DNA of 64,000 nt from Escherichia coli. GTDB taxonomy: Bacteria; Pseudomonadota; Gammaproteobacteria; Enterobacterales; Enterobacteriaceae. Below are positions 1-5,882 of the stretch, piece after piece (position 1 is the first letter of the stretch; every line of letters begins with the position of its first letter). Position numbers and translations under genes: made by a program. Below the pieces are notes generated by a model that was not told the DNA's origin, made no database searches, and worked only from the letters and a program-made list of their open reading frames with translations. Location of the stretch: assembly GCF_002854065.1 (NCBI RefSeq), contig NZ_CP024147.1. The stretch is one strand, 5' to 3'.

Positions 1-2181
1 TTCAACCTTCGCCACCATCTCATTACCAGAGCACGAGAGATAGTTTTGTTTAAAACCGCTATAACTGTCGACGTTCCCTGTTCCGAGGTTTACCGATGAA
101 TGCGTTGTCTGCTCCGCGGCAGTTAAATAGTCCTTTACTGCGGTTGGCCAGCCATACTCAGTCCCGATGATATTGCCAGGGTAAGCCGAATACAGACTTT
201 CCAGTGAGATCTCACGCGGTATATGCCCCGTGCCGCATTCTGCCTGCATACTGGTATTTTGATCGAATAACGCCCAGTCTTCGTTATTTTCCCGTACTGT
301 GCCTATTTCATGCGTGGTTTCAGCCGCCAGCAGCGGTCGTTTATATAAACTGCCAGCATCAATGATGCCGTGCATGTGGCCCCACATCCGCGCATATTCG
401 CTGTCCGGACTGGTCACCACCGTAAAGACCACATCTTTGGCATCTTCAGCAGTGAAATTACTGCGCATTTTCGCCGTAATATGCGTTTTAACGCCTGCGC
501 CGTCAGGCTGCGTCAGCAGCAGAGTTGCCTGACCATTGACGTCGGTCATTCCCTCATAATTATGATCATCTACCTTTTGCAGGTTGGTGCCGCCGGAAAT
601 TTGTACCGGATGCGCTTCCCACGCCGGGTCGGTTTGATTTTTGCGGTTAACGCCGTCATCGAGATGCAGCGAGAAGTAGTAATAAGCCAGCGGCTGATTG
701 TTATTTTTTTTATCGGTAATGGTCAGGCGTATCGTAGTGCTGTCACCGACCTCTGCCTTCGCGGCATTTATACTTTCATCAAAGTTACTGGGCGTGAGCA
801 CCAACTCTGGCTCAACATCGGGTTCTGCTTTATCCACACAGCTCACGATATACTTTGTACTGTCTGGTTTTTGCGCTTCGCTGCGGTTAGACACATCAGC
901 CGCGTGGTGCTGCCCGGTACTTCCTGCCAGAGATGACCAGTAATAATCACCCTGCATCGGCCAACCGGCGGTCTCCTGAATAGAGTTAGGGATCACCGTA
1001 GCCAGCGCGCCAAACTGGCGCATGCCAGGCAAAATATCGCAGTGGTTATCTGCGCCACTCCAGGTGAAGGTCGACCAGGTTTCACCGTGATCATTCACGC
1101 TGCCATCTTCGTTATCAACTTCCGCCGCCAATTTCGGACGACTAAAGGTGTAATTCATGGCCGTCAGGGTTTCCGCCATATGGCCCCACATATTGGCCTG
1201 CGGGGCATCCGGGCTGGTGAGTACAGTAAATATCACCGCCGTTTCACTGGTTTGCGAGATGCCAGAAAGGCTGACCACCAGCGGCGTTTTGACACCTGGA
1301 CCATTGGGCTGCGTCACCGTGACGGTAGCTGCGCCATCAGCATTAGTCGTGCCCCGATACTCCGTTGCTGTGGTGGTGAGTTCAGTGGTATCAAGATTGA
1401 CAGGTGAGGTGTTATTCACCACTCCCTGGCGGTTTTCAGCATCTTTTCGTTTGATAACAAAAGGGATATTGCCCGCAATATTACCTTCACAATCTTGGGT
1501 GGTTACGGTTAAGGTGATTGAACCATCGACAGTAGTCTTTGCCGCTTGTAACGTATCGTCATAGCCACTGGCGCTAATTGTCACCAGGTCGCCCTGGGCG
1601 GGAGCAATATTCAGCGTCACTTTATGTTCAGCCAACGGCACCGTCCCCTGATTAGGCACACCAGTTAACGTGTAGAGGTAGAGTAAAGGTAGCGCTTCCT
1701 GCTCATTGATTCGCGGCCACGCCACCAAAGAACGCCCTGCCAGATTCTGCGCGCAGAAAGAGCGGTCCGGGCGCGGTTGTGGGCTGAGCGGCGTATCTGG
1801 CGTCGCGGCATCCGCCCACACAAGAGATACAGCAGGAGGCGTCTGGTTTTGCCAGCCTAGCACGGGGGGATTAGAAAAAAGATCGCCTTCAGGATCGTGA
1901 GGGTTAACCAGAATCATTCTCGCCGCTGTGTCATCAACACTGAATGCGCTGGGTTTTACAGATGCCTGAATGTCGTAGGTTTTGCTCGGATCAAGCTGAA
2001 CGCTTCCCTGATAAACGGGTACGCTGGCGCTCTCTGCCCCGGGCACTGTGCCATTGATTGCGTCGGTCGAGATGCCAGTTTGTTGCCACTGGCCACCTTT
2101 TAATACTGCCCCAACCTGAAAAGAGAGGAAGAGCAGAAAAACCGCCGTTATCGCTTTTATCAGTTTCAAAGTCCCGTCCAT
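1..2181 (-). CDS. ratA: RatA-like large repetitive secreted/outer-membrane protein, N-terminal ~727 codons; gene continues past window start
   Basis: ATG at 2179-2181 (minus) opens a frame that stays open to position 1 (hand translation; not in ORF track because no stop inside window). Product starts [18 protein letters not shown] (signal-like) and contains two long internal repeats (..[32 protein letters not shown].. and ..[32 protein letters not shown]..). Position downstream of sinI/sinH matches the Salmonella CS54-island order (recollection). Plus-strand ORFs 370-936, 1042-1407, 1157-1564 are shadow ORFs. Confidence 0.6.
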
Positions 2182-2316
2182 GATTGAAACCTGCCCGTTT
2201 AAAGTTATTTTTTCACTTCAACCCACTTTGCTTAACGCTGGCTAAGCAAAGTGTGCGGAGAAGCACCATTCCCTTGCTGAAATGACCAGATTGTTGACAA
2301 AGTGCGCGTTATTCAT

Positions 2317-2416
2317 GCCGGATGCGGCGTTAACGCCTTGTCCGACCTACAAAATCGTGCAAATTCAATACATTGTAGGAACCATGTAGGCCTGATAAGC
2401 GAAGCACATCAGGCAG
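2317..2416. repeat. REP/BIME-type palindromic units (two copies)
   Basis: tgccggatgcggcgttaacgccttgtccgacctaca and tgtaggcctgataagcgaagcacatcaggca, the canonical enterobacterial REP palindrome family, in the ratA-sinI spacer. Confidence 0.75.
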
Positions 2417-3492: not shown

Positions 3493-5673
3493 CTAGTGCT
3501 TGCTGTAAACCACACGTAATCCATACCCCTGCACGCCATCCTCTTTTTGGGCACCAAATTTCTGTACCGCTTCCTCGTTAGTGGCAGGGATGACAATATC
3601 TTCATTACTGGTATTCGATTGCGCACCGGTGTAGCCATTGACGCTGTGCCCGGTAAATTCCCACTGATAGCCGTATTGCGCCATTTCTTCTTCCGTCAGT
3701 TTTTCCGACTGCTGGAAAACGCCATCTTTGTTGGCATCACGCCATAAGACAAAACGGTAGGCGTTATCCACCGGCAAATGTTCTTTGTCGTTATCAATAA
3801 GGTTGACAGGTTTAGTCGCAGATACACGGTAGATAAAGGCATTAACGTCATTGCCCCCCGCCCCGAGGAAAGTCACATCGACATAGTTACTATCGTCATA
3901 CGGCGCGGCCTTTGCTTTCCAGCGGAAGGTGCCGGGCAAAGTACTGGAGAGGGTGACGGTTCCTTTCTCTTTATCTTGCTTCGCGATAAAGACGCACGGG
4001 TTATCGGTCGAGCAGGCTTTATTGGTGAGGGTGACTTTTTTATCCTGAGCATCGTAAAGCTGCGGACTCAGGCCATTTTCTGGCAGCGCATTACCGTTAC
4101 GGTCGGTGTCATCACCAAAGCTATCGGTAACATCGAGATCCATCACCACGCCATCGACGCCATCCGCCTGAGCGCTGGCTTCATGACTGTGATTGTTTTC
4201 ATCCGGCACATCCGCAATGTTGTTGACGATCAGTTCAATTTTGCGATCCTGCTGAACGGTGATTTCCACCACGCCGGAGTTTTGCCGGTTGCCTTTTTCA
4301 TCTTCCAGCGCCAGACGCACGCGCCAGGTATTGAGTTTTTCCTGTTCGGCGGGATCAGAGCTGTACTGCCAGGCTGGCAGCACCAGATTCCAGTGGTTGT
4401 TGTTCCCTTCCGTGATGGTATTTTCTTTGATAACCGGCATCACCAGCGTACGCGCAGCGTTGTTTTTCGCCTGCCACGAGGCGACGACAATCTTATAGTG
4501 ATGGTTGATTAGCGCATTGATTGTCCACTTACATTTTTCCAGCCCTACCGCAGCTTCGGGGGTGTCCTTGATGACACAATCCGGGTGTTCATTGGTGGCG
4601 TCAGCCTTAAGCCACAACGTAACGTCGAGAGGATCTTTTTCTTTATATTCCAGAACAATAAAATTATTGCGCTCAACAAAGTCATGGCGGCTGCCCATCA
4701 GCGAGTGAGCTGCTTTGACGTTATCGCTATTCAGTTGATCTTTTAGCGGAACACCGAACTGATAGTTAATCGTGGCGTTAACGCTAAGATCACTGTTATC
4801 TCCGGTACCTGCTTTATAATCCGTCCCGACAGTCAGTAACGGAACGGGTTGATAGTTCACGCCAAGCGTCACTGCATAGGGATCTTTTTCTAAATTATCG
4901 GTGCCGAAGAGCGCCACTTCGTCACCATAATATTGCTCGAAAACAATTTTGCTCCCCAACTGAGGATAAGAAGGAAGCCAGGCTTCCGCCCGGACATCCC
5001 AGCCACGTGCGGGGCGTTCTAAATAGAAATCAAAATCTTTTGAATCTTTCCACTCTGAAAGCGGATGATAATAGTTACCAGAAAATTTTAAATAATCCGT
5101 CCAGGCTTCTGTTCCCAAACCTAAACGGCGATGTCCGCGGGTGAAATCATAATCATAAAATATATTCCCCCCCAGAAGCCATTTATCAAAATTATGTCTT
5201 ACACCTAAACCTATATTACCTATCGTGCGTTCTTCTTTTCGTTGCGCAGAAAACTGACTGAAATAGACTGTGCTCTGATTGTCATACCAGGGGACAAAAT
5301 AGTCGATTGAACTGCCGTCCAGATCGCCACCCTGACCGATGGAAAGGTTAGAGCGAACTTTACCATAAGGAGAAAGCGCACCTTCGATATAAGACTGTGC
5401 AGATGATGTGATTTGCCCTTGCAGATAGCTTCTCGCCTGGGATTCAAGAGCTTCTGGAGTCAGGTTCTCGAAGCCCTGCTGGGCGGACTCGGTAACGTAA
5501 TTGGCACCACGTTCCTTGAAAGATTTGCCTTTGTTACTTTGTTCCTCTTGTTGAGCCGTTTCGCTTGCCAGATCAGGTAATGAAGATTCGCTTTGCTTAA
5601 TATTTATCTTCGGTGCCGCATAAGCAGCACCAGAAATAACGATTAGCGTTATATAGCGAATCCATCGCAGCAT
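3493..5673 (-). CDS. sinH: Intimin/invasin-family inverse autotransporter (SinH-like)
   Basis: ORF track 726 aa, ATG with AGGAAA SD; signal peptide MLRWIRYITLIVISGAAYA; N-terminal beta-barrel region with the family motifs (..YFVPWYDNQ..GNIGLGVRHNF..GWDVRAEAWLPSYPQLGSK..GSRHDFVERNNFIVLEYKEK) followed by Ig-like passenger repeats. 55-bp spacer to sinI suggests an operon. Confidence 0.75.
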   Translation of the reverse strand: MLRWIRYITLIVISGAAYAAPKINIKQSESSLPDLASETAQQEEQSNKGKSFKERGANYVTESAQQGFENLTPEALESQARSYLQGQITSSAQSYIEGALSPYGKVRSNLSIGQGGDLDGSSIDYFVPWYDNQSTVYFSQFSAQRKEERTIGNIGLGVRHNFDKWLLGGNIFYDYDFTRGHRRLGLGTEAWTDYLKFSGNYYHPLSEWKDSKDFDFYLERPARGWDVRAEAWLPSYPQLGSKIVFEQYYGDEVALFGTDNLEKDPYAVTLGVNYQPVPLLTVGTDYKAGTGDNSDLSVNATINYQFGVPLKDQLNSDNVKAAHSLMGSRHDFVERNNFIVLEYKEKDPLDVTLWLKADATNEHPDCVIKDTPEAAVGLEKCKWTINALINHHYKIVVASWQAKNNAARTLVMPVIKENTITEGNNNHWNLVLPAWQYSSDPAEQEKLNTWRVRLALEDEKGNRQNSGVVEITVQQDRKIELIVNNIADVPDENNHSHEASAQADGVDGVVMDLDVTDSFGDDTDRNGNALPENGLSPQLYDAQDKKVTLTNKACSTDNPCVFIAKQDKEKGTVTLSSTLPGTFRWKAKAAPYDDSNYVDVTFLGAGGNDVNAFIYRVSATKPVNLIDNDKEHLPVDNAYRFVLWRDANKDGVFQQSEKLTEEEMAQYGYQWEFTGHSVNGYTGAQSNTSNEDIVIPATNEEAVQKFGAQKEDGVQGYGLRVVYSKH

Positions 5674-5882
5674 GTTTTTTCCTGTGAAAATTTAATTCTG
5701 AAATAATGTCTAATATTGTATTCCAGATAGCACAGGAACTGCACGTCATAAGTGCTAAATATAGTCTTAAAATTATAAGAATGTGACTTTACACATTTTT
5801 AATTAGTCGTTAATCTAATAGGAAAGAGATTATAATATTTATATTAGGAATATATAATGTGAAATCATATATTCCAGTGATA
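5674..5882 (-). promoter_or_regulatory. AT-rich leader/promoter region of the sinH-sinI-ratA cluster (candidate nucleoid-protein silencing region)
   Basis: 209 bp of markedly AT-rich sequence (runs such as tttaattctgaaataatgtctaatattgtattcc and ttataatatttatattaggaatatataatgtgaaatcatatattcc) between yfgJ and sinH; composition is typical of horizontally acquired promoters. No specific site identified. Confidence 0.4.

Follow-up and report, generated by a model that had tools for sequence, protein, structure and literature searches.

The subject of this analysis is a 64,000-nucleotide stretch of an Escherichia coli genome (NCBI RefSeq assembly GCF_002854065.1, contig NZ_CP024147.1), hereafter the window, whose left end, up to the conserved gene yfgJ, carries the sinH–sinI–ratA locus, which corresponds to the short version (roughly 10 kb) of the CS54 island known from Salmonella. 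We are confident that this region is best explained as an adhesin locus, in which the type Ve autotransporter SinH is encoded together with SinI and RatA, and which is present here as a rare haplotype that was most likely acquired or retained through homologous recombination with a non-coli Escherichia. The locus as such is already described in E. coli (as IatB/SinH, as the 'ila locus' and as the SinH vaccine antigen) and is named in identical RefSeq sequences; it is textbook material for the type V secretion and extraintestinal pathogenic E. coli (ExPEC) vaccine fields, and its confirmation adds nothing new to them. The window copy, judged by its sequence, is a distinct rare haplotype with a Salmonella/Citrobacter-type SinI, a short RatA and an inserted bacterial interspersed mosaic element (BIME).

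Gene content, position and synteny

The three genes lie co-directionally on the minus strand to the left of yfgJ (Table 1), as the original prediction had it, and were seen in the list of open reading frames (ORFs) and in the minus-strand translation of positions 1–2181. The plus-strand ORFs of the region, which are antisense to sinH, sinI and ratA, were rejected as unsupported. The spacers had been described as short; they measure 55 bp between sinH and sinI, 209 bp between yfgJ and sinH, and 290 bp between sinI and ratA, the last of which is not short. The window indeed truncates ratA, whose 727 stop-free codons run off the left edge.

Table 1. Features of the locus and its flank in the window (positions 1 to 64,000)
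Feature	Positions	Strand	Size	Basis or remark
sinH	3493–5673	-	726 aa	ORF list; NCBIfam, Pfam
sinI	2472–3437	-	321 aa	ORF list; NCBIfam
ratA-like gene, 5' part	1–2181	-	727 codons	continues past the left edge of the window
sinI–ratA spacer	2182–2471	-	290 bp	sequence, RNA fold, inverted repeats
Repetitive extragenic palindromic (REP)/BIME-type palindromic element	2287–2460		174 bp	alignment, E. coli copies, Rfam
AT-rich region 5' of sinH	5674–5882	-	209 bp	presumed promoter/regulatory region
yfgJ, zinc-ribbon protein, conserved flank	5883–6098	-	71 aa	ORF list
Divergent tract within the essential gene der	6250–7500	-		identity profile; der = 6161–7672

Profile searches placed all three proteins in named families. 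SinH matched the NCBIfam SinH equivalog NF033423 with 1480.4 bits (cut-off 999), residues 1–726 aligning to profile positions 1–730 of 730, and SinI matched NF040711 (SinI family autotransporter-associated protein) with 420.6 bits (cut-off 165). The RatA fragment gave 1353.6 bits with the RatA-like model NF011844, over profile positions 3–722 of 2683 and with the RatA and RatB models as the next best; the cut-off for RatA-like/DUF823–DUF824 repeat adhesins (NF011844, NF011843), 3870 bits, is set for the full protein, of which the window holds just 727 of about 2139 residues.

The original prediction had also named yfgJ of K-12 as the direct neighbour of xseA. In MG1655, xseA (2634232–2635602) and yfgJ (2635599–2635814) indeed overlap by 4 nt and no gene separates them; K-12 is without these genes and presents the empty site, and neither of the outcomes that would have contradicted the original prediction was seen. 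To the right of yfgJ in the window follow der, bamB and yfgM, and then the usual E. coli core up to purL. Among 5426 complete E. coli genomes searched by megablast, strains 100416 and CUWW06 carry window positions 1–6200 at 100.0% identity, and the products that the Prokaryotic Genome Annotation Pipeline (PGAP) names on this identical DNA, in the interval from xseA to yfgJ, are SinH, a SinI family protein and an 'adhesion domain-containing protein'. Strain 100416 differs from the window at 7 of 21,200 positions, and CUWW06 shows 7 differences in 18.2 kb; in the latter all three genes are intact, and ratA, encoding 2139 aa, stops 68 bp short of xseA. The locus therefore lies between xseA and yfgJ/der, with the yfgJ side visible in the window and the xseA side in CUWW06 and 100416. 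Across the 5426 genomes, the xseA–yfgJ junction is of the empty K-12 type in 3668, and sinH is present in 1740, about a third.

In species-representative genomes, the order yfgJ–sinH–sinI–ratA was found to be common to E. whittamii, Escherichia sp. E1V33, E. albertii, Citrobacter, Pseudocitrobacter and Superficieibacter. The Salmonella locus in our comparison (L029) reads der, yfgJ, sinH, sinI, ratA, followed by a gene running off the locus, at the place where ratB is expected. The match to CS54 in content and gene order was thus confirmed by profile and synteny comparison for the families, the position and the Salmonella order. The label 'island', which had also been applied, fared less well, since the conserved gene order at one site in several genera points to a locus of old standing, lost or replaced by recombination, and not to a recent foreign acquisition. 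A phage- or integrase-borne island was likewise considered and rejected, as no tRNA, integrase or insertion sequence (IS) element is found within window positions 1–6200.

Architecture of the three proteins and their intergenic regions

SinH is a type Ve (inverse) autotransporter, with an N-terminal IAT barrel ahead of an Ig-like passenger. Its N-terminus, MLRWIRYITLIVISGAAYA/AP, resembles a signal peptide when read by eye only (basic n-region, hydrophobic core, A-x-A motif), and is followed by the barrel (about residues 64–344) and a passenger (about 345–726) of three beta-sandwich domains. The barrel was detected as Pfam PF11924 IAT_beta at residues 64–337 with full model coverage (E = 3.1e-105), and in a phmmer search residues 102–344 aligned to the barrels of invasin (4e1t, E = 6e-72) and intimin (4e1s, E = 7e-64), which bears out the intimin/invasin-family beta-barrel adhesin originally proposed for this 726-aa protein. 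The intimin model NF033627 scored 250.6 bits (cut-off 1400), and this in the barrel region only; SinH is a relative of intimin, not intimin.

For the passenger, we used a second alignment that had been extended by the C-terminal domains of SinI and a small number of remote relatives of full length, and from which fragmentary or frameshifted metagenomic proteins had been left out. With this enlarged alignment, AlphaFold modelled SinH 341–726 with a predicted local distance difference test score (pLDDT) of 82.5, placing beta-rich domains at about passenger residues 10–145, 158–263 and 271–386. The best PDB matches of the model in Foldseek were tandem Ig-like/FnIII-like proteins (probability about 1.0), including PrgB, antigen I/II C123, intimin D00–D0 (6tqd), InvD (5ldy), SiiE and complement MG domains. 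The global TM-scores were low (0.2–0.36) because the passenger model has several domains, and the matches are to be read as a fold class and not as close structural identity. The model thus supports assignment of the SinH passenger to the Ig-like fold class. The passenger family is narrow, comprising 65 clusters among 1.84 billion cluster representatives in a profile search. SinH fragments of 90–92% identity were also met on a contig of a Collinsella sp. metagenome-assembled genome (L014, 2 kb) and on a Rhizobium wenxiniae contig (L024, 426 bp), and these are most likely Escherichia contamination of those assemblies.

SinI has a signal-peptide-like N-terminus and no beta-barrel, and, together with the NF040711 score above cut-off, this agrees with the sinI-like secreted protein of 321 aa in the original prediction. 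Pfam detected no significant domain in SinI, and a PDB sequence search with it returned no relative. By BLASTP, the C-terminal 100 or so residues of SinI (223–320) share homology with the final domain of SinH (residues 633–725; 38% identity, E = 6e-16).

The open frame of ratA begins at the ATG at position 2181 and encodes a signal-peptide-like N-terminus without a barrel. In the fragment, Pfam resolved two BIg21 + InvE_AD units (BIg21 at residues 221–321 and 483–589, InvE_AD at 324–449 and 592–718), and a match to PDB 5n40, a 'putative invasin', was obtained with E = 1.2e-28; these repeats and the NF011844 match identify the large repetitive ratA-like protein that had been described. In the window's haplotype the full-length protein has 2139 aa (CUWW06, RM13514), compared with about 2690 aa in ExPEC. 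In strain 100416, the closest public genome, IS1 elements were seen in ratA (locus L001, 11168–11865) and in yphG; at about position 49,900 of the window, in yphG, the IS1 of 100416 is absent and appears as a 768-bp alignment difference, and the window thus belongs to a near relative of 100416 and not to that strain itself.

The sinI–ratA spacer contains inverted repeats and is predicted to fold as RNA with -115.8 kcal/mol (z = -7.9 versus shuffles). Within it, a 174-bp element is inserted in a conserved hairpin 3' of sinI, which shows as a clean 174-column gap in the alignment of other species. Copies of positions 2287–2437 with about 90% identity occur elsewhere in most E. coli genomes, for example in the dppA–dppB spacer of strain HS; Rfam ES036 matched at 2351–2393 with 48 bits (gathering score 37.6), and a match to the REP-derived naRNA4 stayed below threshold. 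Among the loci compared, this BIME insertion is present in the window's haplotype and Escherichia sp. E1V33 only, and is absent from E. whittamii, E69 and Citrobacter. It is because of the insertion that the spacer measures 290 bp here versus about 110–120 bp in ExPEC. On the other side of the locus, the region 5' of sinH has a GC content of 0.35–0.39 in the 500-bp segments that span it, versus about 0.50–0.52 around it, and holds sigma-70-like matches on the minus strand at 5863–5834 and 5787–5758; it is presumed to be the promoter/regulatory region.

A rare haplotype and the origin of the locus

A sinH gene with at least 95% identity to that of the window occurs in about 48 of the 5426 complete E. 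coli genomes, 47 of which hold most of the 6.2-kb query, and in all other sinH-positive E. coli the DNA is 77–80% identical to the window's version. The carriers comprise O145:H28 enterohaemorrhagic E. coli (EHEC) and isolates from baboons, pigs, calves, fish, vegetables and wastewater; one of them, PapRG-06-5, belongs to sequence type ST8525 (PMC7643976). The original prediction had mentioned homologues in pathogenic E. coli lineages, which holds for the ExPEC literature, but the allele in the window is rare, non-ExPEC and shared with O145:H28 EHEC. In the O145:H28 strain RM13514, which has the same haplotype, sinH is annotated as frameshifted (L005, 15497–17678) and sinI and ratA are intact, and in the carrier strain ESDR8 IS elements lie inside the locus. 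The core of the window genome, over 10.4 kb, is 98.8% identical to K-12, 99.1% to O145:H28 and 97.0–97.5% to B2/F strains.

The divergence from ExPEC strains CE10 and C691 is uneven among the proteins. SinH is 86–88% identical in amino acids overall (90–91% in the barrel, 96–97% in the first passenger domain and 75–78% in the last), the RatA N-terminus 70–75%, and SinI just 47–48%; to E. whittamii and E1V33, the window proteins are 91–99% identical over their full length. SinI sequences form two deep clades. One comprises the window's protein with those of E1V33, E. whittamii and E69 and, more distantly, those of Citrobacter, Superficieibacter and Salmonella (66–76%), and the other the ExPEC alleles together with Pseudocitrobacter. 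Within the latter, ExPEC CE10 (phylogroup F type) and Pseudocitrobacter vendiensis are 97% identical in SinI and 92% in SinH (sinI at L006 12962–13945 and L017 12207–13190), a likeness that suggests recent exchange of the locus between genera.

The divergence extends into the flanks. The yfgJ stretch is 71–79% identical to K-12 at the nucleotide level, and the YfgJ protein is 79% identical to that of CE10 and C691, versus 96–99% for E. whittamii and E1V33. Contiguous with the divergent yfgJ and the adhesin haplotype is the tract of der that runs from 6250 to about 7500, where identity to K-12, CE10, C691 and RM13514 is 90–96% before it jumps to 99–100%. This tract is found at 99% identity or more in 3 of the 5426 genomes, at 95–99% in 12 and at 90–95% in 5411 (99.7%), and the genomes listed above 95% that were compared with the carriers of the haplotype (all but TB06052 and OkiPb01695) are every one among them. 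Its best matches among the sampled species representatives are E1V33 and E. whittamii, at 95–97%. At the opposite end, the last 700–900 bp or so of xseA in CUWW06 are also diverged from K-12, and RM13514 combines the window's adhesin haplotype with an ordinary der. The simplest reading of these sequences would be a recombination block from the 3' end of xseA through most of der, which was later trimmed to different lengths in different carriers. We consider it more likely than not that a block of at least 11–12 kb, derived from a non-coli Escherichia akin to E1V33/E. whittamii, entered, or persisted in, an otherwise ordinary E. coli background, where it took the place of the xseA 3' end, the whole of yfgJ and some 1.25 kb of the essential GTPase gene der. 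If this is true, E. coli that replace the adhesin locus also take in foreign versions of essential genes, and the sharp divergence step in der would be a clean example of accessory-locus recombination that imports foreign sequence into an essential gene.

How the locus came to be patchy in E. coli is a related matter, and here we lean towards an ancestral enterobacterial locus that was deleted in E. coli phylogroups such as A/B1, its empty and occupied states being spread by recombination in the flanks. The same site and order in Escherichia, Salmonella, Citrobacter, Pseudocitrobacter and Superficieibacter point to this, as do a GC content (0.44–0.55) near that of the flanks except in the promoter region, the lack of an integrase, tRNA or direct repeats at the borders, and a divergence that reaches into xseA and der on both sides. 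The evident inter-genus exchange, with the CE10 SinI so close to that of P. vendiensis, speaks against it; in addition, this explanation concerns origin and is compatible with the functional one.

Two further observations were made elsewhere in the window. In rodZ, identity dips at 12501–12750 to 84% with CE10 and 77–80% with E. whittamii/SCPM, K-12 and RM13514 being at 99–100%; the dip seems to correspond to the variable linker of the gene. The small RNA ryfA is present in two full-length copies in tandem, at 23812–24116 and 24493–24797, where K-12 has one; timP toxin genes are annotated with them in strain 100416, and an IS128 RNA match lies between them (24147–24357).

Proposed function and comparison with known systems

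By analogy with described systems, a Sec signal peptide would carry SinH to the periplasm, where the beta-barrel assembly machinery (BAM) complex would place the 12-stranded barrel of its N-terminal part in the outer membrane, and the three Ig-like domains would be threaded outward and displayed as an adhesin/invasin. SinI would act as a barrel-less exported partner, probably made from the same transcript as sinH, with a C-terminal domain like that at the tip of SinH, and RatA would be a giant exported protein of repeated BIg21 + adhesion-domain units. We infer these steps, and a role in adhesion, invasion or colonisation, from the literature. Goh et al. identified IatB as the SinH orthologue (74% identical), which mediates biofilm formation, with a SinI-like gene downstream of iatB and an analogy to zirTSU (PMC6714894), and a 2025 review, which uses the name 'ila locus', notes reported co-transcription of sinH and sinI (PMC12525524). 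For the Salmonella counterpart, Kingsley et al. 2003, as cited in PMC3739510, found reduced Peyer's patch colonisation by a sivH mutant.

An explanation of another kind is that SinH does not chiefly display its own passenger but works as a ZirT-like two-partner translocator, whose Ig-like domains stay periplasmic and bind SinI and RatA and whose barrel exports both. Heinz et al. (2016) suggested that SinH may resemble ZirT and serve to export SinI and Rat-like proteins (PMC4943183), and the hypothesis was also put forward in PMC6714894. It accords with the signal-peptide-like N-termini of the barrel-less SinI and RatA, with the domain that SinI shares with SinH, and with the linkage of the three genes across at least six genera. 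In the Salmonella ZirTSU system, too, a barrel gene precedes genes for exported proteins that lack a barrel and have a domain in common with the barrel protein's passenger (PMC4943183, PMC6714894). The sole sequence link between the two systems is, however, a weak match of SinI to ZirU_fam (E = 4.7e-5), which at 23.6 bits is far under the cut-off of 100. Furthermore, the divergence between SinI clades exceeds 50%, whereas SinH keeps 82–91% identity, which would be odd for a tightly co-evolving translocator and substrate. We regard the translocator as unlikely because antibodies to the passenger protect mice, which marks it as a protective antigen and implies surface exposure (PMC9937491), and because IatB/SinH alone gives biofilm without the downstream gene (PMC6714894).

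Still less likely is that the locus in the window's lineage is a silent, repressed and decaying remnant without current function, as might be read from the IS1 that breaks ratA in 100416, the sinH frameshift in RM13514, the IS elements in ESDR8, the BIME between sinI and ratA and an AT-rich upstream region typical of H-NS-silenced genes, since sinH, sinI and the 727 ratA codons of the window and all three genes of CUWW06 are intact, and the degree to which the proteins are conserved in E. whittamii and E1V33 fits purifying selection.

Several results nevertheless weigh against the overall explanation, of a functional adhesin locus with an Ig-like SinH passenger that was acquired from a non-coli Escherichia. 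Pfam found nothing in SinH beyond IAT_beta, with no Big or Ig domain in the passenger, and the Ig-like passenger of the original prediction is thus borne out by the AlphaFold/Foldseek model but not by the domain search. A first AlphaFold run on the passenger, with 23 close homologues, reached a pLDDT of 48 and was not used for a fold search. A scan for promoter and terminator consensus returned 6 promoter-like sites, versus 5.9 expected in shuffled sequence. No sampled lineage exceeds 97% identity in the der tract, and the donor is not among them. Finally, the disrupted ratA of 100416 and the frameshifted sinH of RM13514 may indicate that the function of the locus is dispensable in this lineage.

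Compared with intimin (Eae) and Yersinia invasin, SinH has in common the N-terminal IAT_beta barrel and the tandem Ig-like passenger; it differs in that Pfam found neither a LysM periplasmic domain nor a C-type-lectin tip domain, and in that it has a co-encoded partner. The CS54 island (shdA–ratB–ratA–sinI/sivI–sinH/sivH) occupies the same site in the same order as the der–yfgJ–sinH–sinI–ratA of the window, with amino acid identities to the window of 74% for SinH, 66% for SinI and 50% for the RatA N-terminus. Unlike the full 25-kb CS54 of S. enterica subspecies I, the locus of CUWW06 and RM13514 lacks ratB and shdA, the interval from sinI to xseA being filled by one rat gene. Such a short form of about 10 kb has been described from S. 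bongori, subspecies II and certain E. coli (PMC3739510), and Dallman et al. described a 10-kb ratA–sivI–sivH island in Shiga toxin-producing E. coli O117:K1:H7 (PMC3739510).

Another close system is the IatB/SinH locus of ExPEC (phylogroups B2/D/F/G; for example CE10, ST73, ST131), which shares with the window the site, the three genes, the architecture and the PGAP annotation, but whose SinI belongs to the other deep clade. Xing et al. found sinH in 98% of B2, 100% of F and G and 67% of D strains and did not detect it in A and B1 commensals; allele variation in SinH was concentrated in domain 3, and immunisation was protective (PMC9937491). The premise of the SinH vaccine is conservation in ExPEC phylogroups and absence from commensals. 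The haplotype of the window represents a second, rarely sampled allele family, whose last passenger domain is only 75–78% identical to that of ExPEC and whose carriers include EHEC O145:H28 and strains of animal and environmental origin. If the recombination reading is true, the antigen diversity of SinH and SinI exceeds what ExPEC-centred vaccine work assumes.

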